64,000 nt of DNA from positions 2,774 to 66,773 of the forward strand of contig JANRIU010000095.1 of assembly GCA_033764615.1 (NCBI GenBank), in the 5' to 3' direction. The translations under genes and the position numbers were made by a program. This DNA comes from Gemmatimonadales bacterium (GTDB lineage: Bacteria > Gemmatimonadota > Gemmatimonadetes > Gemmatimonadales > GWC2-71-9). The notes under the pieces are model-generated. The model was not told where the DNA came from and made no database searches. It worked only from the letters and a program-made list of their open reading frames with translations. Below are positions 38,632-59,433 of the stretch, piece by piece (positions within the stretch are counted from its first letter, which is position 1; each line of letters begins with the position of its first letter).

Positions 38632-38699
38632 GAAAGGAATGCTTACCCGCCATGCGCCCGATTGTCATGGCGAACTCCGCCCGAAACACGAATCGGATC

Positions 38700-39398
38700 T
38701 CACCGAATCACCCAGGCGGTGGCGAGCAGCGCGGTGTGTTCGGCGAGGTCGGGCTGGCCCGGCCGAGCGCGCAGCAGCCGGTGTTGGTAGCCCGCCTCCA
38801 GCTGCACGGCGCCGAGGCGCCAGCGCGAGAGGAACTGGAAGCGGTTCTGGTTCCAGCCGTTCCCCTCCAGCGAGATGAACGCCTCCTGGCTCACGACGAG
38901 CGAGAGCGCGCCGCGCAGGGGCACGATCGCCTGCGCCTGCCAGCGCGTGCGCCATTCGCCGACGCCCTCGTCGCCGGCGCGGCGCAGCAGGTCGAGCCGC
39001 GCGCGCCCGGTCAGCGTGACGCGCCCCGCCTGCGCGCGACGCAGGGCGCCGAGCGAGAGGTTCCACTGCGTGGAGCCGCGCGGCTGGTCGAGGAACTGCA
39101 CCTCGGGCTGCAGGAACGTCCCGTTCGCGATCGGCAGGTTGGCGCCGGCGCGCCACACCACGGCCTGGAAGCCGGGCCCGCTCGGCACGGTGCGGAGCTG
39201 CGTGTCGAGCCACGCGCTGCCCGACCAGCGGCGCGGCTGCAGCAGCGCGCCGGTGCGCGACCACGACGCGAGCTCCTGGCGGTCGATGCCGAATTGCGCG
39301 GCGGCGGGACGGACGGCAAGCAGGAGGAGGGGGACGAGCGACCACGGGACCGCCGAGGCGCGCGGGCGAGGGGGAGGGAGCGGATGGGCGCGGCGCAC
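38700..39398 (-). CDS. Hypothetical secreted/outer-membrane protein, DUF2490-like
   Basis: This is the C-terminal 232 aa of the 949-aa fused ORF, with an in-frame GTG start at 39398. It has a signal peptide (WSLVPLLLLAVRPAAAQ). The pattern EAFISLEGNGWNQNRFQF...LEAGYQHR resembles DUF2490 as I recall it. Confidence 0.45.
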   Translation of the reverse strand: MRRAHPLPPPRPRASAVPWSLVPLLLLAVRPAAAQFGIDRQELASWSRTGALLQPRRWSGSAWLDTQLRTVPSGPGFQAVVWRAGANLPIANGTFLQPEVQFLDQPRGSTQWNLSLGALRRAQAGRVTLTGRARLDLLRRAGDEGVGEWRTRWQAQAIVPLRGALSLVVSQEAFISLEGNGWNQNRFQFLSRWRLGAVQLEAGYQHRLLRARPGQPDLAEHTALLATAWVIR

Positions 39399-39479
39399 GC
39401 GTGGAAGATGGCGAGGGGCACGCCGGTGGGCCACCGGCCCGGCAGGGGCACGGCGGGTACGCCGGCGGTAGCGTTCGGC

Positions 39480-40349
39480 ATGGCAGACGACCCGTCCACC
39501 GCCGCCGGGCCCGAGGCGCCGCTCGTCCACCCGCACGCGCTCCGCCGCCTGGGGCGCGCGGCGCCGCTCACGGCGCATCCGGCGATGCGCTGGCGCGACG
39601 GCGAGGCGAGCGCCTGCGAGGAACAGCTCGCCGAGGAGACGCCCGTCACGCTGGTGTACAACGCGGTGCCCCACGTCGTGATGATGCTCACGCCCGCCGA
39701 CCTCGAGGCGTTCGCGCTCGGCTTCAGCTACACGGAGGGGCTCATCACCTCGCCGGACGACGTGCGGGAGGTGACGGTCGTGCCGCACAGCCGCGGCATC
39801 GACGTGAACCTGACGGTGGGCGACGCGGCGTTCGCGATCGTGGAGGGGCGCGCCCGGCGGATGTCCGGGCGCACCGGCTGCGGCGTGTGCGGCACGGACA
39901 ACGTGGACAGCGTGCTGCGGCCGCTCGCGCCGGTCGGGCCGGGGGTGACGGTGCGCGGCAGCGCGATCCATCGCGCGCTGGACGGGCTGGAGGCGCGGCA
40001 GGCGCTCAACGCGGCGGCGCACGCGGTGCATGCGGCGGGCTGGGCCGATCCTTCGGGCGAGCTGCGGCTGGCACGCGAGGACGTGGGCCGGCATAACGCG
40101 CTGGACAAGCTCATCGGCGCGCTGCTGCTGGAGCGGGCCGACCCGCAGGCCGGCTTCCTCGTGATCACGAGCCGCGCGTCGTTCGAGATGGTGCACAAGG
40201 CGGCGTCGTTCGGCACGGGGCTGCTCGCCGCCGTGGGCGGGGCGACGGCGCTTGCGGTGCGGCTCGCGCATGCCTCGCGGCTCACGCTCGCGGGCTTCGT
40301 GCGGCGGGGCGGGCACGTGGTGTACAGCTGGCCGGAGCGGGTGACGTAG
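39480..40349 (+). CDS. fdhD: Formate dehydrogenase accessory sulfurtransferase FdhD
   Basis: ORF trimmed to MADDPST, giving 289 aa. It has conserved FdhD elements (EETPVTLVYN, MLTPADLEAFALGFSYTEG, GRTGCGVCG, EDVGRHNALDKLIG, SRASFEMVHKAA). Confidence 0.9.
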   Translation: MADDPSTAAGPEAPLVHPHALRRLGRAAPLTAHPAMRWRDGEASACEEQLAEETPVTLVYNAVPHVVMMLTPADLEAFALGFSYTEGLITSPDDVREVTVVPHSRGIDVNLTVGDAAFAIVEGRARRMSGRTGCGVCGTDNVDSVLRPLAPVGPGVTVRGSAIHRALDGLEARQALNAAAHAVHAAGWADPSGELRLAREDVGRHNALDKLIGALLLERADPQAGFLVITSRASFEMVHKAASFGTGLLAAVGGATALAVRLAHASRLTLAGFVRRGGHVVYSWPERVT

Positions 40350-40423: not shown

Positions 40424-43400
40424 CTACGTGCTCCCCAGCACCACCGTCCCCTTCCGTTCCAGCACGCCCCAGCCGCGCGCGCGCCCGGCGATCGCCGTCG
40501 CCACCGCCTGCAGCACCGCGAGGTACAGCACCTGCCGGTAGGCGATGCGCTGCGGGATCACGAGCAGGGCCTGCCGCGGGTCCTCGCCGGGCTCGAGCAG
40601 CAGGCCGAGCAGCGCGGCCGCGGCATCCACCACGACGAACACGAGGTACCAGGGCAGCAGCGTCGCGAGCTGGCTCCACGCCGCCGCGCCGCCCTCGGCG
40701 TGCCACGCCCAGCCTGCGCGCCCGAGCGCCACGAGCAGCAGCAGGTCGGCCACGGGGGCGACGAGCGGGAAGAGGAGCTGGAAGAGCCACACGTTCGGCA
40801 GCGCCACCCAGCCGAGCGGGCCGCCGCGCCGCCGCAGGAGCGGCGCGCGGTGCTTCCACGCGCACTGCAGCGTGCCGAACGTCCAGCGGAAGCGCTGGCG
40901 CAGCAGCGAGCGCAGCGTGTCCGGCGCCTCGGTGAGGGCGACCGCCTCCTCCGCGTACGCCACGCGGTACCCGGCCCGGAGCAGCGTCATCGTCAGGTCC
41001 TGGTCCTCGGCGAGCGTGGCGCCGCTGAAGCCGCCGACGACGCGGATCGCCTCGCGGCGCCACGCGCCGATCGCGCCGGGCACGACGGTGATGCAGCCGA
41101 GCTGCGAGAAGGCGCGGCGGTCGAGGTTCTGGCTCGTGACGTACTCGATCGCCTGCCAGCGCGTCACGAGGTTCACGCGGTTGCCGACCTTCGCGTTGCC
41201 CGCCACGGCCCCGACGCGCGGGTCGGCGAGCGGCCGCACGAGCGCGGCGAGCGCGCCCGGGGGGAAGAGCGTGTCGGCATCGACGGCGACGATGAGCTCG
41301 CCCGTGGCGATGGCGACGCCCGCGTTGAGCGCGCTCGCCTTGCCGCCGTTGGCCTGGCGCACGAGCCGGAAGCGCGGGTCGTCGCCGGCCGCGGCGGCGG
41401 CCGCCGCGGCGGTGCCGTCCGGCGAGCCGTCGTCCACCACGATCACCTCGAGGCCGGGCAGCGCCTGGTCGAGCAGCGAGCGCACGGTCCGCGCGATCGT
41501 CTTCTCCTCGCGGAACGCCGGCACCACCACGGAGACCGTCGGCACCCACGCGGCGTCGGCCGCGCGCCGGGCGTAGGGCGCCGCGCGCCGCTGCCGCACC
41601 GCGAGCCCGCCGACCAGCAGGAGCCGGAGCGACCCGAGCACGACGGCGAGCGTGAAGAGCGACGCGAAGACGAGCTCGGTGCCCGAGAGCAGCGAGAAGC
41701 TGGCGAGGTCGAGCCAGCGGCGCACCGCCTGCGCGGGCGGCACGGGCGGCATCGCGCGCGCCGCGGGGATGCCTGCGAGGCCCGAGACCGTCTCGAGCCG
41801 GAGGCCGCGCGCCCGCAGCGAGTCGACGAGCGGGCCGACGGCGGCGAGCGTCGCCGCGCGGTCGCCGCCGCCATCATGCAGCAGGATCACGCGGCCGCGC
41901 GGGAGGTCGTCGAGCGCGCCGCGCACGATCGCCGCGGGCGTCCGGCCGCGCTCCCAGTCGCGCGGGTCGATCTCGAGCGCCGCGGTGAGGTAGCCGAGCT
42001 CGTCGGCGACGCGCATCGGCAGCAGGCGCGACGCGGTGCGCGGCTCCGCGTCGCCGATGTACGGCGGGCGGAAGAGGGTCATCTGGCGGCCGGTGACCGC
42101 CTCGACGAGGCGCTCGGTGGCCGAGAGCTCGAGGCGCACCTGCGCCTCGCCGACGGCGCCGAGGTCGGGGTGGCTGAAGGTGTGGTTGCCGACCTCGTGC
42201 CCCTCGCGCACCATGCGGCGCAGCAGGTCGGGTTGGCGCTGCGCGGCGCGGCCGATGACGAAGAAGGTGGCGCGCGCGTCGTGCGCGGCGAGCGTGTCGA
42301 GGATGGCGCCGGTCCATGCGCCGCCGGGACCGTCGTCGAAGCTGAGGGCGACGGCGTCGGCGGCCCCCGCCGCGCGCTCGACGGCGTAGCCGGTCGGCAG
42401 CGACGTGACGGCGCTGGCCTCGACCCGGCCGTCCGGCGCGAGCGTGACGGTGCGCGCGCCCGGGCGCGCGCTCGACGTGACACGGATCAGCTCCCCGCGG
42501 CCCGCGAGCGCGAGCGCGCCGGTGCTCGGCAGCGCCTCTAGGCCCGTGGCATCGGGCCGCACGCCGTCGCGGCCCAGCACGCGCCAGAGCGTCGGGTCCT
42601 CGGAGCCGAGGCGCCAGAGCGCCGCGCCCGCCGTGCCCGCCGCCTGCGCGAGGCGGAGCTGGTTGTACGCGGTCGTCGCGTCGAGGAACCACGCCGCGTG
42701 CTCGCCATCGGCGGCGGTCCAGCGGAGCACCGGCGTGCGCGACGCCGGGTCGGTCGCGGGCAGGAGGCCGAGGCCGCGGGCGAGCTGCCACGCCTCGGGC
42801 ACGCCGATGTCGCGGCCGCGGCCCGCCGCGCCCGGCGCCCAGTGGTAGCCGTACTGGCCGACGCCCGCGAGCAGCTTCGCCGCGGGGACGCGCGCCGCGA
42901 ACGCCGCGAGCCGTTCCGCGTACCACCCCTCGCCCGCCACCGGCCCCGCATCGTCGAGCCCCGAGTGCTCGTCGTAGAGCATCGGCACCACGTAGTCGAG
43001 CGCCGCGCCGTACGCCTCGAGCGGCCAGTCGGCGAGGTCGACCGGCACGGCCGCGCTCACGACGCTGCCCGCGGGGAGCGCGGCGCGGAGCGCGGCGGCG
43101 AACGCGAGCACCGGCGCGTGCAGCTCGCGCGGGAGGCGCTCGAAGTCGAGCATCACGCCGCCGGCACCCCACGCGCGCGCGCTGTCGGCCACGAGGCGCG
43201 CCGCGGCGTCGCGCACGGCCGCGTCACCGACGAGGCGCGCGACCGCATCGGGGTCGAAGCGACCGCCGGTGAAGTTGGTGAGCATGACGTGCAGCGCGGG
43301 GGCGCCGTCGGTCGCGCGGAGGAGCTCGAGCAGCGCGTCGTCGCGCTCCAGCCGGAGCGGCGGCGCGCCGCGTGCGCCGAGGAAGCCCGTCTCGGCGACG

Positions 43401-43750
43401 ACCCAGTCGAGGCGGTCGGCGTGCTCGCGCACGGTGGCGAGCGCATCCGCGTCCCACGAGACGTAGAAGCCGGCGGTGATCGGGTCGGGGGTGCGGCGGC
43501 CGGCGGGGAGCGGCGGGAGCGGGGCGCGCGGGCCGTCGGCGAGCGCGTCGGGATGGCGTGGCAGCGCGGCGCGCCCGGGCCCGCCCGGGAGCGCGGGGAC
43601 CGGGCGCGGCGGCGGTCGGAGCACGCCCGTGAGCAGCGAGCCGAGCAGCAGCACGACCGCGAGCCCCAGCACGCCGACGGCCGCGCGCACGCGGGGCGCG
43701 CGCCGGCCGGTCGGGTCGTGGAAGACCTGCGGTGCGTGCCCGCCGGTCAC
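40424..43750 (-). CDS. Multidomain exopolysaccharide synthase: TM, GH18-like domain, CE4 polysaccharide deacetylase, family-2 glycosyltransferase (PgaC/NodC-like) with a C-terminal TM bundle
   Basis: This is the C-terminal 1108 aa of the 1414-aa fused ORF. The GTG start at 43750 overlaps the upstream stop (GTGA). The GH18-like TIM-barrel motif is GGVMLDFE. CE4 motifs are SFDDGP, HTFSHP, RPPY and LLHDGG. GT2 motifs are VVVPAFREE, VVDDGSPDGT, AVDADT, AEDQDLT and QRFRW. Confidence 0.85.
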   Translation of the reverse strand: MTGGHAPQVFHDPTGRRAPRVRAAVGVLGLAVVLLLGSLLTGVLRPPPRPVPALPGGPGRAALPRHPDALADGPRAPLPPLPAGRRTPDPITAGFYVSWDADALATVREHADRLDWVVAETGFLGARGAPPLRLERDDALLELLRATDGAPALHVMLTNFTGGRFDPDAVARLVGDAAVRDAAARLVADSARAWGAGGVMLDFERLPRELHAPVLAFAAALRAALPAGSVVSAAVPVDLADWPLEAYGAALDYVVPMLYDEHSGLDDAGPVAGEGWYAERLAAFAARVPAAKLLAGVGQYGYHWAPGAAGRGRDIGVPEAWQLARGLGLLPATDPASRTPVLRWTAADGEHAAWFLDATTAYNQLRLAQAAGTAGAALWRLGSEDPTLWRVLGRDGVRPDATGLEALPSTGALALAGRGELIRVTSSARPGARTVTLAPDGRVEASAVTSLPTGYAVERAAGAADAVALSFDDGPGGAWTGAILDTLAAHDARATFFVIGRAAQRQPDLLRRMVREGHEVGNHTFSHPDLGAVGEAQVRLELSATERLVEAVTGRQMTLFRPPYIGDAEPRTASRLLPMRVADELGYLTAALEIDPRDWERGRTPAAIVRGALDDLPRGRVILLHDGGGDRAATLAAVGPLVDSLRARGLRLETVSGLAGIPAARAMPPVPPAQAVRRWLDLASFSLLSGTELVFASLFTLAVVLGSLRLLLVGGLAVRQRRAAPYARRAADAAWVPTVSVVVPAFREEKTIARTVRSLLDQALPGLEVIVVDDGSPDGTAAAAAAAAGDDPRFRLVRQANGGKASALNAGVAIATGELIVAVDADTLFPPGALAALVRPLADPRVGAVAGNAKVGNRVNLVTRWQAIEYVTSQNLDRRAFSQLGCITVVPGAIGAWRREAIRVVGGFSGATLAEDQDLTMTLLRAGYRVAYAEEAVALTEAPDTLRSLLRQRFRWTFGTLQCAWKHRAPLLRRRGGPLGWVALPNVWLFQLLFPLVAPVADLLLLVALGRAGWAWHAEGGAAAWSQLATLLPWYLVFVVVDAAAALLGLLLEPGEDPRQALLVIPQRIAYRQVLYLAVLQAVATAIAGRARGWGVLERKGTVVLGST

Positions 43751-43950
43751 GTCGCGCGCAGCGCCGTCACCAGCTCCGCCGTCCGGCCGAAGAGGCCGAG
43801 GGCATCGCCCTCCTCCTCGCCCTCGTCGGTGGAGAGCGCCGGCGCGGCGGGAACGGGCTCGAGCTCGCCGCGCGCGTTCGCCTGGAACGTGCGACCGGTG
43901 AACGGGCAGCGGACGATGGAACCGGGTGCGTAGCTGGGCTTGCGGAACAT
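43747..43950 (-). CDS. Hypothetical 67-aa acidic protein translationally coupled to the EPS synthase
   Basis: ATG with a GGAGG RBS about 9 nt upstream. Its stop overlaps the synthase GTG. The sequence is MFRKPSYAPGSIVRCPFTGRTFQ...DEGEEEGDALGLFGRTAELVTALRAT. No TM segment and no family recognised. Confidence 0.55.
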   Translation of the reverse strand: MFRKPSYAPGSIVRCPFTGRTFQANARGELEPVPAAPALSTDEGEEEGDALGLFGRTAELVTALRAT

Positions 43951-43998
43951 GGGGGCGGCCTCCGTGCCGGAGCGGGTCCCCTGATGTTCGGGAACTCC

Positions 43999-44658
43999 TC
44001 ACGATTCCTTGAGCGGCTCGAGGCACCGCGCATCGTCGTGAGTAGGCGCGTTCACGAAGGTGGAGACGGGCCAGGAGGCGAGAGCCGGGGGCTGGGGGCC
44101 TGGGGCCGGAGGCTGGGGGCCGGGGGCGAGCCAGCGGGGCCACTCGGTCTCCTCCACGATCACCGGCATCCGCGCGTGGATGTGGGCCACCGCATCCTGG
44201 GCGTCCATCGTCAGGATGGCGCACGTCTCGAGCGGCGCACCGTCCGGTCCGCGCCACGACTCCCAGAGCGCCCCGAAGGCGAGCACGTCGCCGTCGGCGC
44301 GGGCGATCGCCCACGGCTGCTTCGCCCTCTGCCCCGGCACGACCTGCCACTCGTAGTACGCATCGGCCAGCACGAGGCAGCGCCGCGCCTTCCACGCCGA
44401 GCGGAACGACGGCTTCTCGTGCGCGGTTTCCACCCTCGCGTTGGCCAGCCGGTCGCCGATGGACGGATCCTTCGCCCACGACGGGACGAGCCCCCACCGC
44501 AGCATCGCCACCTCGCGCCCCGCGCCCGCGGCACGCAACACCGCCACGTCGCTGCCGGGCGCGATGTTCCAGCGCGGCACAAGCGGCGGCAGCGCCACCA
44601 CGCCGAGGCGGCGTGCATCGATCTCTCCGGGCTTGCCGAGGGAGTAGCGACCGCACAT
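43999..44658 (-). CDS. SOS response-associated peptidase (SRAP, YedK/HMCES family)
   Basis: ORF trimmed to the invariant MCGRY N-terminus (Met7). It has conserved RWNIAP, MLRWGLVPSWAKD, NARVET, C.VLADAYYEW, TMDA and HARMPVI. Confidence 0.9.
   Translation of the reverse strand: MCGRYSLGKPGEIDARRLGVVALPPLVPRWNIAPGSDVAVLRAAGAGREVAMLRWGLVPSWAKDPSIGDRLANARVETAHEKPSFRSAWKARRCLVLADAYYEWQVVPGQRAKQPWAIARADGDVLAFGALWESWRGPDGAPLETCAILTMDAQDAVAHIHARMPVIVEETEWPRWLAPGPQPPAPGPQPPALASWPVSTFVNAPTHDDARCLEPLKES
44090..44131 (-). repeat. Imperfect 21-bp tandem duplication inside the SRAP gene, encoding PGPQPPA x2
   Basis: ggctgggggcctggggccgga / ggctgggggccgggggcgagc (17/21 identical). Its composition resembles the intergenic G-run tracts at 17240..17290 and 40349..40381. 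Confidence 0.7.
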
Positions 44659-44759
44659 GGGGCGGCAAGATGGCATGCGGGCCGGGGGGCAGGAAGGGTG
44701 GGCCGAACGGGTGACGTGGCGGGTAGGAGTCCCCGCGGGTTCCCGTCTACCGTTCAGGC

Positions 44760-49438: not shown

Positions 49439-50167
49439 TCAGCTGCCGATGCGCCGGAGCGCTTCCTCCGCGCGGGCACGGACATCCGGATGGTCGCTCG
49501 TGCGTGCCCGCTCGAGCGCGGGCGCGGCGCTCGTCGCGGCGGCGCCCCATCCACCGAGCACGATTGCCGCGCGCGTCTGGCACCAGGGATCCCCGCTCGA
49601 GACCAGTGCGGTCAGCGCCGGCAGCGCCTCGGGCACCGGTCGGCCCAGCTCGCCCAGCGCTACCGCGGCCTCGGCGCGCGCCAGCATCGGCCCCTCACCC
49701 AGCGCCCGCACGAGCGCCGGCACCGCGGGCTCGAGATGCGGCCCGAGGCGCGCGAGCGCGAGCGCCGCCCAGAACTGGCGCGCGGTATCCGGCAGCGCCG
49801 CCGCGAGCGGTGGCACGGCGGCCGCCCCCACCCGGCCGAGCGCCGCGGCGACGCGTGACCGCGCGAAGCGGTCGCTGGTGAAGAGCGCATCGACGAGCGC
49901 GGGGACGGCCGGCGCGGCCCCGGCCCCCATGCGGCCGAGCGCCTCCGCCGCCCAGTAGCGGCGCTCATGCACGGGGTCGCCGAGGAGCGGCACCAGCGCC
50001 GGGATCGCGTCGGCGGCGAGCGCGGCGAGCGAGTCGGCGGCGGCCTGACGCGCGGTGTTGGCGGGATCGGCGAAGCGGGCGATGAGCGCCGCGACGCGGT
50101 CGCCCTGCGCGGCGAGCGGCGCGGGCAGGACACCCGCGAGTGCGAGGAGCAGGAGGGTGCGACGCAT
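49439..50167 (-). CDS. Secreted HEAT-repeat protein
   Basis: 242-aa ORF with a signal peptide ([17 protein letters not shown]). It has repeated about 30-aa HEAT/PBS-lyase-like units (A.PALV.AL.D....R..AA.ALG..G). Confidence 0.75.
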
Positions 50168-50246
50168 GCGCGGATGCTACTCGGTGCGCGGGCCGGCGGT
50201 TCCATCCGTCGCTGACAGCGCCTGCCCCGCCCCCTACCTTCCGCAG

Positions 50247-51905
50247 ATGCCCCCCGAGCCCGGTCCCCGCGTCGTCCGCGCGCCGCGCGGCGCCGACCGC
50301 TCCTGCCGCACGTGGCAGGCGGAGGCGGCGCTCCGCCTCCTGATGAACAACCTCGACCCCGACGTCGCCGAGCGGCCCGACGACCTCGTCGTGTACGGCG
50401 GCCGGGGACAGGCGGTGCGCTCATGGGCCGCGTTCGACGCCATCGTCGCCACGCTCCGCGACCTCGCCCCGGACGAGACGCTGCTCGTGCAGTCGGGGAA
50501 GCCGGTCGGCGTCGTGCGCACCCATGCGGAGGCGCCGCGCGTGCTGATCGCCAACAGCAACCTCGTGCCCCACTGGGCCACGCAGGCGCACTTCGACGCG
50601 CTCTGCGCCCAAGGGCTCATGATGTACGGCCAGATGACGGCCGGCAGCTGGATCTACATCGGCACGCAGGGCATCGTGCAGGGCACGTACGAGACGTTCG
50701 CCGAGTGCGGGCGCCGGCACTTTGGCGGCTCGCTCGCCGGGCGGCTGGTGGTGACGGCGGGGTGCGGCGGCATGGGCGGGGCCCAGCCGCTCGCGGCGGT
50801 GATGGCGGGCGGCACGTGCCTGATCGCCGACGTCGACGCGACGCGGCTCGAACGCCGCGTGCACGACCGCTACCTCGACACGGTCGCGCCGACGGTCGAC
50901 GCCGCGATCACCGCCGCGATGGGCCACGCCGAGCGGGGCGAGGCGGTGTCGGTGGGCGTGTGCGCGAATGCGACCGAACTGCTGCAGCGGCTCGTGCAGC
51001 GGCATGTGACGCCCGACGTGCTCACCGACCAGACGAGCGCGCACGACGAACTCAGCTACGTCCCCGACGACCTGCCGCTCGCCGCCGCCGTCGCCCTGCG
51101 CGCGGACGACCCCGCGGCGTACGCGCGCCGGGCGCGCGCGACGATGGCACGGCATGTCCGCCTCATGCTGCAGCTCATGCACCGCGGTGCCGCCACCTTC
51201 GACTACGGCAACAACCTGCGCCAGCGCGCGCGCGACGAGGGCGTGGAGGAGGCGTTCGCCTTCCCGGGCTTCGTGCCCGCGTACATCCGGCCGCAGTTCA
51301 GCGTGGGGCGCGGGCCGTTCCGCTGGGTGGCGCTCTCGGGCGACCCGGACGACATCCGCGCCACGGACGATGCGCTCCTCGCGCTCTTCCCGGAGGACGC
51401 GGGGCTCGCGCGCTGGCTCCACCTCGCCCGCGAGCGGATCGCGTTCCAGGGGCTCCCGGCGCGCATCTGCTGGCTCGGGCAGGGAGCGCGCGCGCGGGCG
51501 GGGCTGCTGTTCAACCGGCTCGTCGCCGAGGGGCGGGTGCGCGCGCCGATCGCCATCGGGCGGGACCACCTGGACTGCGGCTCCGTCGCGTCGCCCAACC
51601 GCGAGACGGAGGCGATGCGTGACGGCACCGACGCGGTGAGCGACTGGGCGCTGCTCAACGCGATGGTGAACGTCGCGAGCGGCGCCAGCTGGGTGAGCTT
51701 CCACCACGGCGGCGGCGTCGGGATCGGCTTCAGCCAGCACGCCGGCCAGGTGGTGGTGGCCGACGGCACGCCGGAGGCCGCGGCGCGACTCGAGCGCGTG
51801 CTGACCAACGATCCCGCCCTCGGCGTCTTCCGCCACGCCGACGCCGGCTACGACGACGCGGTGGCCTGCGCGGCGCGTGAGGGGCTGCGGCGGCCGCTCG
51901 CGTGA
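50247..51905 (+). CDS. hutU: Urocanate hydratase
   Basis: ORF trimmed to MPPEPGP, giving 552 aa. It has HutU motifs ([73 protein letters not shown]). Confidence 0.95.
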
Positions 51906-52819
51906 TCCCGCACGTCGCCCCGGCCACGTGGCACGTCGCGCCGCGTCCCGGCTCGTTCGCGGCCGCGCTCCGCAGCGACGCGCCCGACGGCTGCCGCGTC
52001 GCGCTGCTCGGCTGCCCGGACGACGAGGGTGTGCGCCTGAACGGCGGTCGGGTCGGCGCCGGCCGCGGGCCGACGGCGCTGCGCGATGCGCTGGCGCGCT
52101 ATGGCGTGCAGGACGCGGCGGCGCTCGGCCCGGCGGCGTGGCCCGCCGTCTTCGACGCCGGCAACGTCGTCGCCGCCGACACCCTCGCGGCGACGCACGC
52201 CCGCGTGGAGGCCGCCGCCGATGCGCTGCACGCCCGCGGCCTGCTCGTCATCGGCCTGGGCGGCGGGCACGACCTCACGCTGCCGCTCGCGCGCGCGGCC
52301 TCGCGCGCCGCGCGTGCCGCCGACCCCGCGCGCTCCGTCCACCTCGCGTACCTCGACGCCCACCTGGATGTCCGCCCGGAGCCGGGCAGCGGCATGGCGG
52401 TGCGCCGCCTGCTGGAGGAGCGTGCCATCACGAGCGCCGCCGTGCACGGGCTCGACCCGTTCGTGACCACGCGCGAACAGCTGCGCTGGTTCACCAGCCA
52501 CGGCGGCCGCGTCGACGAGGCGCTGCGGCCGCCCGAGCCCGGTGTCGCGCTCTACCTCAGCGTCGACCTCGACGTGCTCGACGCCGCGCACGCGCCGGCC
52601 GTGAGCGCCATGCACCCGGACGGCTGGACGCCCGCGCGCGCCGCCGCCGCGTGCCGGGCTGCCGGCCGCCAGCCCGACCTCGTCGGCGCGGACATCATGG
52701 AGCTGAACGGCGCGCTCGACACCGACGGCCGCACGGCGCGCCTCGCCGCGCACCTCCTGCTGCAGCTGCTCCTCGGCATCGCCGAGCGGGAGGCGGACGC
52801 CGCCGGTGCCGCGCGCTGA
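51902..52819 (+). CDS. hutG: Formimidoylglutamase (arginase/ureohydrolase family)
   Basis: 305-aa ORF. Its GTG start overlaps the hutU stop (GTGA). It has ureohydrolase metal-binding motifs ([22 protein letters not shown]). The hut operon context supports the call. Confidence 0.8.
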
Positions 52820-54029
52820 CCTCGTCATCCGCGATGCGCGCGTCGTCTCGCTCGCGACCGGTCCGCGGCCGCGGCGCGGCGCGGCGATGCGCGAACTCGG
52901 CGTCGTGCCGCGGGCGGACGTGGTGGTCCGCGGCGACACGATCGATGCCGTGCTCCCGCGCTACGAGGGCGCGGCCGCGCGCGAGCTCGACGCCCGCGGG
53001 CGCGTGCTCCTGCCGGGCCTCGTCGACTGCCACACGCACGCCTGCTGGACCGGCAGCCGCGTCGACGAGTGGGAGCGCACCCTCGCGGGCGCGACGTACC
53101 TGGAGGTGCAGGCCGCCGGCGGCGGCATCATGGCGACCGTGCGCGCCGTGCGTGCCGCCCCGTGCGACGCGCTCGCCGACGCCACCCGACGGCGGCTCGA
53201 CGCGATGCTGGCCCACGGCGCGACGACGATCGAGGTGAAGACGGGCTACGGCCTCACCGCCGAGGGCGAGCTGCACATGCTGGCGGCGATCCGCGCCGCC
53301 GCCGGGGGCTTCCCGGGCACCGTGGTCCCGACCGCGCTGCTGGGCCACGCCATCGACCCCGAGCGGCGCCGCTTCCTCGACGAGACGACCGGCGCCACGC
53401 TGGACGCCATCCACGCCGCCGCGCCCGGCATCGCGATCGATGCCTTCTGCGAGCGCGGCGCGTGGTCGGTCGACGACACCTCGCGCCTGCTCGCACGCGC
53501 CCGGGCGCTGGGCCACCCCGTGCGCGTGCATGCCGACCAGTTCACGTCGCTCGGCATGGTGGAGGCCGCGCTCGGCCTCGGCGCCGCGAGCGTCGACCAT
53601 CTCGAGGCGAGCACGCCCGCCACGCTCGCCCGCCTCGCCGCGTCGTCGGCGATCGCGGTGCTGCTCCCCGCCTGCGGCTTCCACCTCGACGGCCGCTTTG
53701 CCGACGGCCGCTCGCTGGTGGACCGGGGCGCCGCCGTCGCGGTCGCGAGCAACGCGAACCCCGGCTCGGCGCCGGGGGGCAGCCTGCCGTTCGCGCTGGC
53801 ACTCGCGGTGCGCCACAACCGGCTCACCGCCGCGGAGGCGCTCACCGCCGCGACCGTCAACGCCGCCTGCGTGCTGGGCCTCGATGATCGCGGGAGCATC
53901 GCGCCGGGGCAGCGGGCCGACCTGCTGCTGCTCGATACCGACGACGAGCGGGAGCTGGCCTGGGCCGCCGGCCTGCCCCCCGTGCGAACGGTGGTGGCGG
54001 GCGGGCGCGTGGTGCGCACCGCCGCCTGA
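52806..54029 (+). CDS. hutI: Imidazolonepropionase
   Basis: 407-aa ORF overlapping hutG by 14 nt. It has PGLVDCHTH, GGGI..TV.A.R, TT.EVK.GYGL, HADQF and NANPGS. Confidence 0.9.
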   Translation: MPRADLVIRDARVVSLATGPRPRRGAAMRELGVVPRADVVVRGDTIDAVLPRYEGAAARELDARGRVLLPGLVDCHTHACWTGSRVDEWERTLAGATYLEVQAAGGGIMATVRAVRAAPCDALADATRRRLDAMLAHGATTIEVKTGYGLTAEGELHMLAAIRAAAGGFPGTVVPTALLGHAIDPERRRFLDETTGATLDAIHAAAPGIAIDAFCERGAWSVDDTSRLLARARALGHPVRVHADQFTSLGMVEAALGLGAASVDHLEASTPATLARLAASSAIAVLLPACGFHLDGRFADGRSLVDRGAAVAVASNANPGSAPGGSLPFALALAVRHNRLTAAEALTAATVNAACVLGLDDRGSIAPGQRADLLLLDTDDERELAWAAGLPPVRTVVAGGRVVRTAA

Positions 54030-54107
54030 CAGCGCGCCCATCGGGCCGTGACACGATGTTGACGGTGTGTGTAGAGCTTTGCCGCTTCCCTGCCTGCCGA
54101 GCGCACC

Positions 54108-54935
54108 ATGTGGTCCCCCGAGGAAGCGCCGCCCGAGCGCATCCAGTGCTTCAAGTGCGGCACGGTGGTGCCGATCGGCGAAGCCGTCGACTACCTCGAC
54201 CAGCTCTGGTGCCCGAGCTGCTCCACGGCGGAGTACGAGTACCGCCGCCGGATCCGCTCGCGCACGCACCGGATGCTCGTCGGCGCCATGTCGGATGCAC
54301 CGCCGAGCGAGCGGCCGTGGGCCGGCCTCGACGGCGACGGGGACGGCGACACCGCGGTACCCGCGATCACGCTCCCGCGCGAGCCCGAGCGGCCGGTCGC
54401 GGAGCCGGTGGCTGCCGCGGCGACGGCCGTGCCGCCGCGGACGCCCGATGCACCGGCGCCCGCGGTGACGCCTGCGCCGCGCACGGGCGAGTCGACGAAG
54501 GGGCTGGAGGAGGACGCGGCGGCACTCCGGCGCCTGCTGCAGGGGCTGCTTGCCGAGCAGGCGCTGCGCGGGCTGCTCCGCGCCATCAACGACGAGCGGT
54601 GGGACGAGGTGGCCGGCGCGCTCGCCACGCACGTGCGGCTCGACCTGTCGGCCTTCTCGGGCGACGCGCCGGCCGACCTGCCGGCGGGCACCGTACCGGC
54701 CGTGCTGCGCGACCGGCTCGCCGGCGGCGGGCGGACGCGCCTGCTGCTCACGGACGTCGCGCCCCTGGTGGACGGCCGCCGCGCGCGCCTGGTGGGCGAC
54801 CTCGTGGCGGTGAGCGCGACGCGCACGCCCGCGGGCGGCGCGGAGCGTTGGAGCGTCGGCACGCTCGAGGCGACGCTCGCCCGCCGCGGCAGCGGTTGGG
54901 CCATCGACGCACTGCGCCTCGCCCTCACCCCCTGA
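54108..54935 (+). CDS. Hypothetical protein: N-terminal zinc ribbon, disordered Pro/Ala linker, C-terminal NTF2/SnoaL-like domain
   Basis: 275-aa ORF with CFKCG...CPSC (a C-x2-C...C-x2-C pattern). The NTF2-like call for the C-terminal part (about 120 aa) is a weak impression only. Confidence 0.5.
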   Translation: MWSPEEAPPERIQCFKCGTVVPIGEAVDYLDQLWCPSCSTAEYEYRRRIRSRTHRMLVGAMSDAPPSERPWAGLDGDGDGDTAVPAITLPREPERPVAEPVAAAATAVPPRTPDAPAPAVTPAPRTGESTKGLEEDAAALRRLLQGLLAEQALRGLLRAINDERWDEVAGALATHVRLDLSAFSGDAPADLPAGTVPAVLRDRLAGGGRTRLLLTDVAPLVDGRRARLVGDLVAVSATRTPAGGAERWSVGTLEATLARRGSGWAIDALRLALTP

Positions 54936-56617: not shown

Positions 56618-57901
56618 TCAGCCGACCTTCATGCCCGGGAACGGCTCCTGGATGCCGACGCTCAGGTCGGTGAAGAACCGGGGGCCGTTCTCCGTCACCA
56701 CCAGGCAGTCCTCGAAGCGGACGCCGAACTCGCCGTAGATGGCGATCGTCGGCTCGTCCGAGAAGCACATCCCCGGCTGCAGCCGGGTCATGTTCCCCTT
56801 CACGAAGTTGGTCCACTCGTGGCCGTCCATGCCGATGCCGTGGCCGGTCCGGTGCGGGAGGCCGGGCAGCTTGTAGCCCGGGCCGAAGCCCGCCGCCTCG
56901 ATCACGCCGCGCGCCGCGCGGTCCACCGCATCGCACGTGTTGCCGACGCGCACCGCGGCGGCCGCCGCGTTCTGCGCCCGCTGCTCCAGCGCCCAGATCT
57001 CGCGCTGGCGCGCCGTCGGCGCGCCGAACACCACGGTGCGCGTGACGTCCGACTGGTACCCCTCCACGCTGCAGCCGATGTCCATCAGCACCGTGTCTCC
57101 CTCGCGCAGCAGGCGCGGCTTCGTCGTCCCGTGCGGGAATGCCGAGGCCTCGCCGAAGAGCACCAGCGCCCACGGGTTGGACCCGCCGAGCTTCCGGTGC
57201 GCCGCGCCGAACAGGCCCGACACCTCCTCGGGCGCCATCCCCTCCTTGAGCTTCGGCAGCACCTCGCGGAACGCGCCGACGGTGACGTCGTTCGCCGCCT
57301 GCAGGAGTGCCAGCTCCGCCGGCGACTTGAACATGCGGCAGCCGGCCGTCACCGCATCGGCGCTCACGACCTGGACGCCGGGCGCGGCGAGCCGCACCCC
57401 GTCGGCGATGAAGAAGCGGACCCGCTCCTCCACGCCGAGCTTGCCCGTCTTCATGCCGCGGTCGGCGAGGATGCGCGCCACCTGGCGGTACGGCGACTCG
57501 TCCTCCTGCCAGACGCGCACGTCCGCCTGCTCGCCCGTGAGCTCGCGCGCGCGCGCCTCCTCGAACGCGGGGCAGACCCACGCGGGCTCGCCGCGCGCCG
57601 GCAGCACGAGCAGGAACGGCCGCTCCGAGAGCCCCCAGCGCACGCCCGCGAAGTACGACATGCTCGTGCCCGGCTCGAGCAGGATCGCGCCGAGGCCGTT
57701 CTCGCGCATGAGGCGCCGCGCCTTCTCCACGCGCTGGGCGCGCTCCTCGGCGGTGATCGGCTGGGGGGCGGCGCGGCCGGCGGCCGCCGGCCGGGGGCCG
57801 GGAGCGTGGCGCTCGTCGGCGGCGGCGAGGGGAGGCATCGCGGCGCCCAGCAGGCTGGCGGCGAGCGTCGCGGAGAAGTCGCGGCGGGAGAGATCGGACA
57901 T
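56618..57901 (-). CDS. M24 family metallopeptidase (Xaa-Pro dipeptidase/aminopeptidase-like) with a Tat signal
   Basis: 427-aa ORF with an N-terminal SRRDFSATLAASLLGAAMPPLAAA twin-arginine signal. It has M24 metal ligand motifs (DIGCSVEGYQSDVTRT, HRTGHGIGMDGHE, FSDEP, RFED). Confidence 0.85.
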   Translation of the reverse strand: MSDLSRRDFSATLAASLLGAAMPPLAAADERHAPGPRPAAAGRAAPQPITAEERAQRVEKARRLMRENGLGAILLEPGTSMSYFAGVRWGLSERPFLLVLPARGEPAWVCPAFEEARARELTGEQADVRVWQEDESPYRQVARILADRGMKTGKLGVEERVRFFIADGVRLAAPGVQVVSADAVTAGCRMFKSPAELALLQAANDVTVGAFREVLPKLKEGMAPEEVSGLFGAAHRKLGGSNPWALVLFGEASAFPHGTTKPRLLREGDTVLMDIGCSVEGYQSDVTRTVVFGAPTARQREIWALEQRAQNAAAAAVRVGNTCDAVDRAARGVIEAAGFGPGYKLPGLPHRTGHGIGMDGHEWTNFVKGNMTRLQPGMCFSDEPTIAIYGEFGVRFEDCLVVTENGPRFFTDLSVGIQEPFPGMKVG

Positions 57902-57943: not shown

Positions 57944-58744
57944 TCAACGATACGCGGGAGGCAGCAGCCGCGAAGGGCGCGGCGCCACGGGCCTGTCGGC
58001 CCCGGGTGCGGCGTCGGTGGCGTACGCCGCGTCCGGCGGCGCGTCGCCCCGCGGGTAGTCCCGGTGCTTGCGGGGGAAGTCCTGCCGCGGCTGCGCGTTG
58101 ATGTACGCCGCCACGTCATGTGCCTGCTGCGGCGTCAGCGAGCCCGGCCGGTCGAACGGCATGTTGGCCTGGATGAACGCCGCGGCGGTGTAGAGCCGCG
58201 CCATCCCGGCGCCGATGTTGTACGCGCCCGCACCCCACACGGCCGTGGCGAGCGCCGTCCCCGCGCCGTCGGCGCCGTGGCAGCGCGCGCACTCGGCGGC
58301 ATAGAGCGCGCGGCCCCGCGCCGTGTCAGGCACGAGCGGCGCGAGCCGCCGCGTCCCCGCGCCGATCGCCTCCGGGCCCGCGCCCGCCGGCTGCGCGAGC
58401 GTGCCGAAGTACGCGACGATGTCCCGCATGTCACGGCCCCCGGGCGGCAGCGCACGCCCCGCGAGGGAGCGCTCGATGCAGCCGTTCACGCGCGCCTCGA
58501 TCGACACCTCGCGCGCCTCGCGCGGGCGCACCTGCGGGTAGCGCCCGAGCACCCCCACCCACGGCATCGCATGGGGCCGCCGCCCGTCGTCCAGGTGGCA
58601 GCTCGTGCAGCGCAGCGCATTGCCGACGTGGCCGGGAAGGCTGTCCTTCGTGGCGGTGAGGAGCGCGCGGCCGCGGACCGGATCGCCCGGCGGCGGCGCG
58701 GGCGGCGGGCCACCCGCGAGCGCCGCCCACACCAGCAGGATCAC
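57944..58744 (-). CDS. Diheme c-type cytochrome, TsdA (thiosulfate dehydrogenase)-like
   Basis: This is the C-terminal 266 aa of the 443-aa fused ORF. Its GTG start overlaps the upstream stop (GTGA). It has two CxxCH sites (CTSCH, CARCH) and a Cys in RVNGCIERS between them (candidate heme ligand). The second half, VWGAGAYNIGAGMARLYTAAAFIQANMPF...LTPQQAHDVAAYI, resembles TsdA/SoxA-type cytochromes as I recall them. Confidence 0.7.
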   Translation of the reverse strand: MILLVWAALAGGPPPAPPPGDPVRGRALLTATKDSLPGHVGNALRCTSCHLDDGRRPHAMPWVGVLGRYPQVRPREAREVSIEARVNGCIERSLAGRALPPGGRDMRDIVAYFGTLAQPAGAGPEAIGAGTRRLAPLVPDTARGRALYAAECARCHGADGAGTALATAVWGAGAYNIGAGMARLYTAAAFIQANMPFDRPGSLTPQQAHDVAAYINAQPRQDFPRKHRDYPRGDAPPDAAYATDAAPGADRPVAPRPSRLLPPAYR

Positions 58745-59433
58745 CCGACGCCCTTCACGTACGTGCAGCCGTGGTGCTGCGCGCGGCTGATCGCGGAGAC
58801 GGCGGCGGGCACGATGCGGCAGCCGGGCGCGAGGTTCCGCTCGTAGTCGGCCAGCACCTCCGCCGGATCGATCCCGCTCGCGCGGGCGGAGCGGCCGGCG
58901 ACGCGCTTCGTGGCGTTGTGGCAGACGAGGATGATGGTGCCGCGCGCCTGCAGCTGCTGCATCGCATCCTCGAGCGCGAGCCCGTGCTCGGGGTCGCCCG
59001 CGTACCACGCGTTGCGCAGCGCCGGCGCCCTGGTGGCGGGGTCGGTGAGCTTGAGCGCATCGCCCACCTTGTACTTCGCCCAGATCGCGTCGTTGAACGC
59101 GAACTCCGTCGCCGAGCCATGCAGGATCGCCACGGCCTGCACCTCGGCGGGCTTGATCCCCCACCCCTCGGTCCAGCCGTTGAGGAAGCGCCGCAGGAAG
59201 CCCCACGCCTGCCCGTCCGCGTGCGACGAGATGTCGAACGCCTGCCGCACGGGGGCGCGCAGCTCCCGGAGCCACGACTCGTCGTAGGTCGTGGTGACCT
59301 TCGGCTCCTTCCAGCCCGTGGCGGATGCCGGCGTGGCGGAAGCGGCGGACGGCAGCGAGACGAGGGCCGCGAGGCTGGCACCCGCACGCGCCAGGAAGCC
59401 GCGACGCGGGGCGGAGTCGGGGGAGAGGGGCAT
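58741..59433 (-). CDS. Tat-exported protein, DsrE/DsrF-like (COG1416-type) candidate
   Basis: ORF trimmed to Met55 (MPLSPDSAPRRGFLARAGASLAALVSLPSAASA, a twin-arginine signal), giving 230 aa. The pattern VAILHGSATEF...L.ARGTIILVCHNAT...IVPAAVSAISRAQHHGCTYVK resembles DsrE-like proteins (vahG.g...GV.f.vC.n....vpsgv..l..lq..Gy.Yik). Confidence 0.5.
   Translation of the reverse strand: MPLSPDSAPRRGFLARAGASLAALVSLPSAASATPASATGWKEPKVTTTYDESWLRELRAPVRQAFDISSHADGQAWGFLRRFLNGWTEGWGIKPAEVQAVAILHGSATEFAFNDAIWAKYKVGDALKLTDPATRAPALRNAWYAGDPEHGLALEDAMQQLQARGTIILVCHNATKRVAGRSARASGIDPAEVLADYERNLAPGCRIVPAAVSAISRAQHHGCTYVKGVG

Follow-up and report, generated by a model that had tools for sequence, protein, structure and literature searches.

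TsdA is the textbook enzyme of thiosulfate/tetrathionate interconversion and is regarded as needing just an electron-transfer partner. The partners described for it, TsdB, HiPIP or cytochrome c, do not include a DsrE-fold protein, and TsdA studied in vitro works alone, which counts against a required helper. The Sox system combines a SoxA-family enzyme carrying a His/Cys-ligated heme (SoxAX) with a separately exported protein that has a single reactive Cys, namely SoxY of the SoxYZ pair. SoxY is exported via the Tat pathway and needs thiol-reducing helpers, its Cys being kept reduced by SoxV/SoxW/SoxS. A further system is the heme-free thiosulfate dehydrogenase (TSD) of acidophiles, for which we know of no cofactor, no electron acceptor and no solved structure. 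At the chemical level, TsdA acts via a Cys-S-thiosulfonate and has served as a model for SoxA (PMC4423706), and the same adduct, Cys-S-thiosulfonate, is formed when DsrE3A reacts with tetrathionate (PMC4175335). For purified TSD, the passages of PMC6335251 that cite Kikumoto et al. 2013 state that it forms tetrathionate and that it reduces neither ubiquinone nor horse cytochrome c. Our literature searches returned no published description of a pairing between TsdA and a DsrE-like, Tat-exported or periplasmic protein.

Such a pairing is encoded in the window analysed here, a stretch of 64,000 nucleotides from a soil bacterium of the Gemmatimonadales. Gene A (58741..59433, minus strand) specifies a 230-aa protein with a Tat signal and a predicted DsrE-like fold, and its open reading frame corresponds to the NCBI product P0001, which has the same 230 aa. 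Gene B (57944..58744, minus strand) specifies a 266-aa TsdA-type diheme cytochrome c (thiosulfate dehydrogenase / tetrathionate reductase). It begins with a GTG at 58744 and stops at 57944-57946, and the start used by NCBI is identical (MDX2194500.1, ‘c-type cytochrome’). The TGA stop of A (58741-58743) and the GTG start of B (58742-58744) overlap in a GTGA (58741..58744, minus strand), which indicates that the two genes are probably coupled in translation. The initial annotation had described both proteins with these lengths, the twin-arginine signal of A and the GTGA overlap, and all of this agrees with the NCBI records and our own reading. It had also pointed to a Tat-signal M24 peptidase 42 nt downstream on the same strand. 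Indeed, an M24 (Xaa-Pro) peptidase gene (56618..57901, minus strand; Pfam PF00557 and PF01321, M24/Creatinase_N) starts at 57901, 42 nt past the stop of gene B, and its product has a Tat-like SRRDF motif. This gene is possibly co-transcribed with A and B. It was rejected as a member of the module, with a homologue present in 0 of 166 related loci. No paralogues of A, no further cytochromes or sulfur genes and no TsdB were found in the 64-kb window.

The product of gene B matches the TsdA of Allochromatium vinosum (A. vinosum; PDB 4WQ7/4WQC) with an E-value of 4e-41 over 205 aligned residues (21-225 versus 24-239), and it is assigned by Pfam to PF21342 with 28.1 bits (cutoff 27), as well as to PF13442/PF00034. 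The motif of heme 1, CTSCH, comprises residues 46-50 (58595..58609, minus strand), and that of heme 2, CARCH, residues 152-156 (58277..58291, minus strand). Between them lies Cys89 (codon 58478..58480, minus strand) within RVNGCIERS, the predicted sixth ligand of the active-site heme. The counterpart of this Cys in A. vinosum TsdA lies within RIGDCFERS, and comparison of RVNGCIERSLAGRAL from B with RIGDCFERSLNGRAL from A. vinosum TsdA places the Cys ligand in register with a posterior of 9/*. The predicted Met ligand of heme 2 is found in Asn194-Met195 (58160..58165, minus strand), where FIKHKMP aligns with FIQANMP. In this respect B resembles TsdA of Campylobacter jejuni (C. jejuni), since an Asn precedes the heme 2 Met in both, whereas A. 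vinosum TsdA has a Lys. A role has been described for Asn254/Met255 of C. jejuni TsdA, and the heme 2 Met is strictly conserved in TsdA (PMC5146829). All 30 TsdA proteins encoded next to an A-family gene retain both CxxCH motifs, Cys89, R75, R85, R92, S93 and M195-P196. B differs from characterised TsdA proteins by its short N-terminal region and by a Pro-rich C-terminal tail that is specific for its clade. Its N-terminus (M-ILLVWAALAGG-PPP) has a hydrophobic core and no basic n-region, and the signal is clearer in the related TsdA of locus L086. Judged from its sequence, B is a genuine TsdA in which the predicted catalytic residues are conserved, so that the two CxxCH motifs, the intervening Cys and the TsdA-like character that had been assigned by eye were all recovered by alignment.

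Protein A carries a Tat signal peptide (residues 1-33; 59335..59433, minus strand) that reads MPLSPDSAPRRGFLARAG...AASA, followed by TP. It contains the motif SAPRRGFLA, and cleavage is predicted at A-S-A. All 18 aligned homologues share the twin arginine, and some members of the family match TIGR01409 or formate_TAT. The candidate active-site or carrier residue is Cys171 (codon 58921..58923, minus strand; VCHNA), which is conserved in 124 of the 125 family members that were classified and invariant in alignment A1. The Cys in IILVCHNAT, singled out in the initial annotation, is thus highly conserved. We take Cys171 to be equivalent, from the motifs, to Cys78 of DsrE/TusD. In the AlphaFold model (pLDDT 86, pTM 0.77), it is located where the strand 167-171 ends and the helix 172-186 starts.

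When this model was compared with the PDB using Foldseek, DsrE/YchN-like structures were the only significant matches, with E-values from 7e-5 to 2e-2. They included MTH1491, ST0148, Swol_2425 (‘DsrE’) and SSO1126, and the entries with E≤0.02 were 1L1S, 2PD2, 8UJA (a designed cage), 3PNX, 2QS7 and 2FB6, with no others. The best structural matches were MTH1491 (1L1S; E-value of 7e-5, TM of 0.74) and ST0148 (2PD2; E-value of 1e-4, TM of 0.68), the TM values being normalised to the target, and the weak sequence similarity to these proteins includes an aligned Cys. Indeed, a profile of the C-terminal half of the A family had MTH1491 as its top match (E-value of 0.006), with Cys171 aligned to the Cys of its ACSN motif. 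When the PDB was searched by sequence, A alone and a full-length profile gave chance matches only. Likewise, Pfam assigned A to no family at E≤1, PF02635 included, and homologues of A had no precomputed Pfam domains, although many of them are labelled ‘intracellular sulfur oxidation DsrE/DsrF family protein’ by JGI. A thus belongs to the DsrE superfamily through its fold and not through a Pfam sequence family, and the predicted DsrE-like fold, which had been proposed for this protein beforehand, is borne out by the structure comparison and the alignment of Cys171 despite the absent PF02635 match. The family is large: 2373 cluster representatives (50% identity) matched at E≤1e-3, and thousands of members occur in soil Acidobacteriota and Gemmatimonadota.

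The likeness of A to described proteins with this fold has clear limits. DsrE3A, DsrE and TusD share with A the fold class and the Cys at a strand-to-helix junction. However, they are cytoplasmic and match PF02635, whereas A has a Tat signal, an insertion of about 45 residues (residues ~113-157) and the family-specific motif NDAIWAKY. MTH1491 and ST0148 are of the COG1416 type, comprise about 110 residues and lack a signal peptide, whereas A is twice as long. SoxY and A may be compared in mechanism only, since SoxY has an unrelated Ig-like fold and a C-terminal GGCGG arm that bears its Cys, whereas A combines the predicted DsrE fold with an internal Cys and a C-terminus reading ...HHGCTYVKGVG.

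A known relative that had been overlooked in the initial annotation is heme-free TSD. A matches NCBIfam NF052225 with an E-value of 2.4e-13 and 50 bits, at profile positions 98-259 only, and all 18 homologues of A match this profile as well. In contrast, bona fide NF052225 proteins score 371-421 bits and the curated equivalog cutoff is 300 bits, which excludes A from membership and means that TSD function cannot be transferred to A. At the sequence level, A is nonetheless best regarded as a remote homologue of NF052225, the heme-free TSD of Acidithiobacillus ferrooxidans (A. ferrooxidans; AFE_0042). That NF052225 corresponds to the AFE_0042 type appears probable from synteny and annotation rather than from the AFE_0042 sequence: the A. 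ferrooxidans cluster AFE_0041-0044 comprises the same types of genes as the TSD clusters of Gluconobacter and Kozakia. In alignment A4, the twin arginine, WxKY, G165, C171 (CHNA), P209, Q219 and G222 are invariant in the A group and bona fide TSD, although the identity of A to TSD amounts to 24-29% and A lacks an N-terminal segment of about 35 residues (PRRRDFKTVPM...WD). Like A, TSD has a Tat signal, a size of about 25 kDa, a periplasmic location and a gene that lies beside that of a thiosulfate-oxidising redox enzyme. The view that DsrE-family proteins are cytoplasmic, on which the initial annotation relied, holds for DsrE3A and its kin, but it is too strong as a general statement, since A belongs to the superfamily of the periplasmic, Tat-exported TSD.

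This homology raises the possibility that A itself oxidises thiosulfate in the manner of A. ferrooxidans TSD, with TsdA mainly accepting its electrons or relaying them to the respiratory chain. The label of NF052225 as a thiosulfate dehydrogenase is in line with such a role, and so are the reported formation of tetrathionate by TSD with neither ubiquinone nor horse cytochrome c as acceptor, in the source passages mentioned above, and the placement of TSD genes next to those of the redox partners DoxD or TsdB/TsdA. Moreover, no c-type cytochrome besides gene B was found in the 64-kb window. However, the catalytic site of the adjacent TsdA proteins is complete throughout, with Cys ligand and Arg pocket, and would be dispensable if they only carried electrons. 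The score of A, moreover, lies far below the NF052225 cutoff. In addition, a protein with one Cys and no cofactor could pass two electrons to a heme only by way of a covalent intermediate, which leads back to A as a carrier. We therefore consider it unlikely that A is the thiosulfate-oxidising enzyme.

We also examined how often A-family and TsdA genes are neighbours. A TsdA gene was adjacent in 23 of the 80 closest metagenomic relatives of A, and the count was 14 of 36 when only those related metagenomic loci that had 1 kb or more of sequence on each side were considered. The latter figure compares with a chance expectation of about 0.03 adjacencies, assuming one TsdA gene per 4-Mb genome, and represents an enrichment of several hundred-fold. 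The closest relatives of A (P0002 and P0009) adjoin TsdA proteins that are 54-56% identical to B. Altogether, three orientations of the pair were observed, and the TsdA partners fall into two subclades that are merely 33-57% identical to B. Seen from the side of TsdA, an A-family gene is located directly downstream in 4 of the 7 nearest relatives of B, at a distance of 58-72 nt or with a 4-nt overlap, and is missing in the other 3, which implies that TsdA does not need A. No fusions of A and TsdA were observed among 23 same-strand pairs. Across 30 loci with both genes, no third conserved gene was found, sensor kinase/NtrC-type genes being present in just 3-5 loci, so that A and TsdA form a two-gene unit.

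The opposite view would be that the adjacency is meaningless here, A being a general periplasmic protein unrelated to thiosulfate with TsdA as its neighbour through local synteny. Most A-family genes are indeed not located beside TsdA. Of 70 GTDB loci retrieved with the NDAIWAK motif, only 4 showed adjacency. The underlying scan, which was seeded on [FYV]NDAIWAK and is biased to one branch of the family, gave 4 TsdA-linked loci out of 84 and alone would wrongly suggest an absence of conservation. For most members the neighbours are unrelated to sulfur and vary, including genes for amidohydrolases, beta-lactamase-like proteins, NHL proteins and peptidases. Furthermore, the genes surrounding the pair in the window belong to histidine and ethanolamine catabolism, and a similar amidohydrolase/SnoaL/arginase set flanks an A homologue that is not linked to TsdA. 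Against this view, Gemmatimonadota, Acidobacteriota and Proteobacteria all show the adjacency, which is found in three gene orders and with divergent TsdA subclades and is several hundred-fold enriched over the random expectation, and the 4-nt overlap is seen both here and in locus L179. A meaningless adjacency is therefore very unlikely. The prediction that the two genes are kept as neighbours was thus correct for several phyla, with the qualification that the pairing is conserved but facultative. Its recurrence across phyla suggests that A is an undescribed helper or carrier for TsdA.

The TSD genes of Proteobacteria provide a second view of the superfamily. Ten proteobacterial loci carrying bona fide TSD genes were sampled, and in 8 of them an SBP_bac_11 gene was annotated directly downstream, the other 2 being unannotated. 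tsdA or tsdBA was also present in 5 of these 10 loci and DoxD in two others. The TSD genes of Paraburkholderia, Burkholderia, Caballeronia and Bosea are located 1-2.5 kb from tsdA or tsdBA, and those of Gluconobacter and Kozakia lie within a cluster encoding a Tat protein, an SBP and DoxD. In Gluconobacter, a TDT-family transporter is also encoded about 4 kb upstream. TSD genes are thus followed by a binding-protein gene and DoxD or TsdB/TsdA, whereas no binding-protein gene adjoining A was found in the window. Proteobacterial TSD clusters also contain genes for the periplasmic thiol reductants DsbA, DsbC, DsbD, TlpA and thioredoxin, and in this they may be likened to SoxY with its requirement for thiol-reducing helpers.

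These neighbourhoods bear on the idea that A maintains or matures the Cys ligand of TsdA, either by removing dead-end adducts (persulfide, sulfonate or thiosulfonate) or by loading sulfane sulfur. The Cys ligands of TsdA and SoxA appear chemically modified in crystal structures, which would favour this idea. The tight coupling of the two-gene unit, the facultative association, which suits an accessory role, and the nature of DsrE-fold proteins as sulfur transferases, as exemplified by the match to the ‘sulfurtransferase DsrE’ Swol_2425, point in the same direction. However, DoxD, a non-homologous enzyme without a heme-ligating Cys, is found paired with the TSD branch as well, and this argues for a role at the level of the substrate rather than of a specific enzyme. 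In addition, activity of recombinant TSD alone is reported in the relevant passage of PMC6335251. Altogether, we regard a maintenance or maturation function as quite unlikely.

The reading that we prefer, and to which we assign an even chance, is that A and B form a self-contained, two-gene periplasmic module for thiosulfate/tetrathionate in which the Cys of A would carry thiosulfate, in analogy to SoxYZ as the partner of SoxAX. The His/Cys-ligated heme 1 of B would oxidise thiosulfate through a Cys-S-thiosulfonate intermediate, and the His/Met-ligated heme 2 would hand electrons onward. A would be exported in a folded state via Tat, with its DsrE fold, no predicted cofactor and one near-invariant Cys, and Cys171 would cycle between the thiolate and the S-thiosulfonate (Cys-S-S-SO3-). 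This adduct could arise by two routes. In the first, TsdA would couple thiosulfate oxidatively to Cys171 in the way that the related SoxAX acts on SoxY. In the second, A would react with tetrathionate that is made or consumed by TsdA, as the cytoplasmic DsrE3A does. The adduct might then be resolved by a second thiosulfate or by electrons from TsdA. This scheme presupposes a physical interaction of A with TsdA and thiosulfonate chemistry on A, both of which, like the direction of the reaction, we infer. It should be noted that no SoxB or SoxCD is encoded near the pair, and that the absence of a nearby SoxB-like enzyme for processing a carrier-bound thiosulfonate counts against A as a carrier. 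The signal peptide of B, in which a charged n-region is missing, also speaks against the module. More tentatively, the whole Tat-exported DsrE-fold family, TSD included, might provide a periplasmic Cys carrier or co-substrate for both TsdA and the unrelated DoxDA, a generalisation that we consider possible, though doubtful. The enzyme served, a tetrathionate-forming thiosulfate oxidoreductase in either case, would then be TsdA in the Gemmatimonadota, the Acidobacteriota and the Burkholderiaceae, whereas in Acidithiobacillus and the Acetobacteraceae it would be DoxDA.

Genes for TsdA and members of the TSD superfamily stand side by side in many genomes from at least three phyla. With its DsrE-like sulfur-transferase fold, as predicted for A, and a single invariant Cys, this superfamily joins the puzzles posed by TsdA and TSD. 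The hypothesis is open to genetics in the cultivated organisms Bosea sp. AS-1, Paraburkholderia fungorum and Gluconobacter oxydans 621H. It would change how matches to tsdA in soil metagenomes are read. If the generalisation to the whole family is true, it would explain the missing electron acceptor of TSD, and it would mean that a second, Sox-independent route of thiosulfate oxidation with a carrier protein is widespread in soil bacteria.

Gene A (window 58741-59433, minus strand) encodes a 230-aa protein with a twin-arginine N-terminus (MPLSPDSAPRRGFLARAG...AASA/TP), and its TGA stop codon overlaps, within a GTGA, the GTG start of gene B (57944-58744, minus strand), which encodes a 266-aa protein with CTSCH and CARCH motifs and a Cys in RVNGCIERS. 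Starting 42 nt beyond B is the gene of an M24/Creatinase_N peptidase (56618-57901, minus strand), which has a Tat-like SRRDF motif. Every one of these details, as described in the initial annotation, was confirmed by the ORFs and by the NCBI annotation of this Gemmatimonadales MAG, in which the products agree (A, hypothetical protein NW201_14240; B, c-type cytochrome MDX2194500.1). The M24 peptidase had no homologue in any of the 166 related loci and, therefore, we do not count it as belonging to the module; finding an Xaa-Pro-type peptidase with an export signal is unusual in its own right. Elsewhere, the window carries histidine-utilisation, EutB, NMO-like, FdhD-family, chemotaxis and polysaccharide genes, and no other cytochrome or sulfur-oxidation gene was found within the window. 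The FdhD/NarQ-family sulfurtransferase domain is C-terminal in a long open frame (38634-40349, plus strand), and a frame of ~1440 codons (40424-44746, minus strand) carries polysaccharide deacetylase and GT2 glycosyltransferase domains; in this high-GC DNA both sets of coordinates denote the frame, not the start codon. The histidine-utilisation-like cluster (50049-54935, plus strand) comprises urocanase, an arginase-family protein, an imidazolonepropionase-like amidohydrolase and a SnoaL-like protein. At a locus of another Gemmatimonadales MAG (L001, 3279-8638), amidohydrolase, SnoaL, arginase and amino-acid permease genes directly flank P0008, an A homologue without a TsdA link. The presence of such a set near A-family genes in both MAGs could be due to local synteny, or the family may have a second functional context.

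Judged by its sequence, B is a real TsdA, in line with the TsdA-like assignment of the initial annotation. It matched the solved TsdA of Allochromatium vinosum (4WQ7/4WQC) over residues 21-225 with an E-value of 4e-41, the catalytic Cys of TsdA is in register with B (RVNGCIERSLAGRAL vs RIGDCFERSLNGRAL), and the Pfam SoxA/TsdA domain scored 28.1 bits (threshold of 27). The complete catalytic site was kept in all 30 of the 30 A-adjacent TsdA proteins. Heme 2 of B has an Asn-Met site, as in Campylobacter jejuni TsdA, whereas A. vinosum has Lys-Met. In the C. jejuni enzyme, Met255 is the ligand and the preceding residue tunes the reaction direction (PMC5146829). The heme 2 site of B thus resembles that of the reduction-biased C. 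jejuni TsdA, but the host is probably an aerobic heterotroph, and B may act in thiosulfate oxidation or in tetrathionate reduction. The signal peptide of B is weak and has no basic n-region, but its start matches that of NCBI and of a similarly short relative. The TsdA clade of B also has a Pro-rich C-terminal tail (residues ~226-266; window 57947-58069, minus strand) with the conserved D[FW]P.K..D[YW]P.GDAP.D.AY, which is absent from A. vinosum TsdA.

A Pfam search with A returned zero matches, and a PDB sequence search nothing significant. AlphaFold2, given 18 homologues of A, produced a confident model (pLDDT 86, pTM 0.77), whose only meaningful Foldseek matches among solved structures were the DsrE/YchN-like proteins MTH1491, ST0148, Swol_2425 ('putative sulfurtransferase DsrE'), SSO1126 ('DsrE/DsrF-like') and BT1422 (E-values of 7e-5 to 2e-2; target-normalised TM-scores of at most 0.74). 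MTH1491 also ranked first when PDB sequences were searched with a profile of the C-terminal half of A (E 0.006), and this alignment sets Cys171 of A on the ACSN cysteine of MTH1491. The DsrE-like nature assigned to A at the outset is thus supported, and A is predicted to have a DsrE-like fold. Cys171, located at a strand end and helix start, is the sole cysteine conserved family-wide (124 of 125 classified sequences); W54, D67, W118-x-K120-Y121, N141, G165, Q219 and G222 are conserved as well. Arg140, one residue before the invariant Asn141, was present in 24 of the 30 TsdA-adjacent members versus 40 of the 95 non-adjacent ones, and might determine the specificity for an anionic substrate or for the partner. 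The family comprises 2373 representatives of 50%-identity clusters (E ≤ 1e-3), mostly from Acidobacteriota and Gemmatimonadota, and many members carry the JGI label 'intracellular sulfur oxidation DsrE/DsrF family protein'.

The NCBIfam profile NF052225 ('thiosulfate dehydrogenase') was matched by A and all 18 aligned homologues well under its cutoff (50 bits vs 300). A tblastn search of plasmids and chromids retrieved proteobacterial A homologues labelled 'transcriptional initiation protein Tat', and the three tested (L167, L168 and L169) scored 371-421 bits with NF052225. This label, which the homologues in L172, L173 and L174 bear too, is a stale misannotation that conceals the NF052225 family in isolate genomes. 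In Gluconobacter oxydans 621H and Kozakia, NF052225-type genes are located inside a Tat protein-SBP-DoxD cluster, with a TDT-family transporter ~4 kb upstream in Gluconobacter. The gene types of this cluster are those of Acidithiobacillus ferrooxidans AFE_0041-0044, and we therefore infer, from gene types and not from the AFE_0042 sequence, that NF052225 is the family of the heme-free thiosulfate dehydrogenase TSD (AFE_0042). A and the NF052225 proteins share the RR signal, WxKY, G165, an identical CHNA cysteine motif, P209, Q219 and G222, whereas the N-terminal PRRRDFKTVPM segment of the TSD proteins is lacking in A. A is thus only remotely homologous to TSD and falls outside the TSD family. 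The initial reading of A holds, but it did not mention that thiosulfate dehydrogenase activity had already been reported for a periplasmic relative. That A is itself a TSD-like enzyme with TsdA as acceptor appears unlikely.

In a first scan of GTDB genomes seeded with the motif [FYV]NDAIWAK, TsdA was found within 4 kb at only 4 of 84 loci, and the other neighbours were heterogeneous. The picture was different for the closest relatives of A. P0002 (36% identical to A) is encoded behind a TsdA 54% identical to B, with a second A paralogue in between, and P0009 (38% identical to A) lies 6 nt after a TsdA 56% identical to B. A directly adjacent TsdA homologue was present in 23 of the 80 metagenomic loci that resemble A most, and in 14 of the 36 loci with flanks of 1 kb or more on either side. 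In three arrangements, dispersed across the A tree, TsdA precedes A in the same orientation (TsdA 51-57% identical to B), follows A in the same orientation (33-41%), or is convergent with A (33-39%). Beside the seven nearest relatives of B (59-65% identical), the A gene was located 58-72 nt downstream or with a 4-nt overlap in four cases and was missing in three. Bona fide TSD genes of cultured Proteobacteria are found 1-2.5 kb from tsdA in Paraburkholderia fungorum (gene order TSD-SBP-TsdB-like-TsdA), Burkholderia arboris and Caballeronia, and a four-heme TsdBA fusion is immediately upstream of the TSD gene in Bosea sp. AS-1. Together, these data from the A side, the TsdA side and the Proteobacteria show that the association is real, old or recurrent, and facultative; conservation of the pair as neighbours, on which the proposed module depended, is borne out in this facultative form. 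An adjacency devoid of functional meaning is very unlikely. No third gene was conserved in the 30 loci that contain both genes, and 23 same-strand pairs included no A-TsdA fusion; the lack of fusions fits separate export routes (Tat for A, Sec for TsdA).

Several related loci deserve separate mention. The plasmid of the cultured strain Bosea sp. AS-1 carries a compact sulfur island, in which the TsdB-TsdA fusion (545 aa; L174, 3089-4726) is preceded farther upstream by SQR-like FAD oxidoreductase, Blh and YeeE genes, and SBP, TlpA and thioredoxin genes lie downstream of the TSD-type gene. In P. fungorum, a small separate PF02635 DsrE-family gene between DsbC and TlpA genes (L170, 1568-2068; L173, 2567-3067) lies just upstream of TSD-SBP-TsdB-TsdA, resulting in two different DsrE-fold proteins per thiosulfate cluster. 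In two Vicinamibacterales loci (L061, 4640-8440; L080, 4544-8413), the genes of a cbb3-type oxidase (CcoN and a three-heme CcoO/P-like protein) lie between an A homologue and a downstream TsdA, an order suggesting that electrons pass directly from TsdA to the oxidase in these Acidobacteriota. The order metK-TsdA-(A) is conserved in the Gemmatimonadaceae loci L180-L183, with A present in L181 and L183 and missing from L182 and from L180, where TsdA is followed by toxin-antitoxin genes. This pattern suggests that A was gained or lost recently.

The cysteine heme ligand of TsdA, an enzyme that serves as a model for SoxA, becomes a Cys-S-thiosulfonate (PMC4423706), and DsrE3A reacts with tetrathionate to form a Cys-S-thiosulfonate (PMC4175335). 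The TSD/A superfamily recurs next to TsdA and DoxD, which both form tetrathionate but are not related to each other, and in Proteobacteria genes for periplasmic thiol reductants (DsbA, DsbC, DsbD, TlpA and thioredoxin) are close to TSD/A genes. The recurrence beside DoxD speaks against a role of A in repair or maturation of the reactive cysteine of TsdA, which we regard as quite improbable. In the searchable literature, we found no description of the pairing of TsdA with the A family or of a DsrE-like fold in the A/TSD family. The simplest unifying reading, to which we give about an even chance, is that the cysteine of the superfamily handles substrate, not electrons: thiosulfate would be held on Cys171 of A as S-thiosulfonate and exchanged with TsdA, much like the carrier exchange of SoxY/SoxAX. 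With the predicted fold, the TsdA identity of B and the recurrent adjacency, the initial interpretation stands, and the exported DsrE-like protein and TsdA would, through such chemistry, constitute a periplasmic thiosulfate/tetrathionate module.
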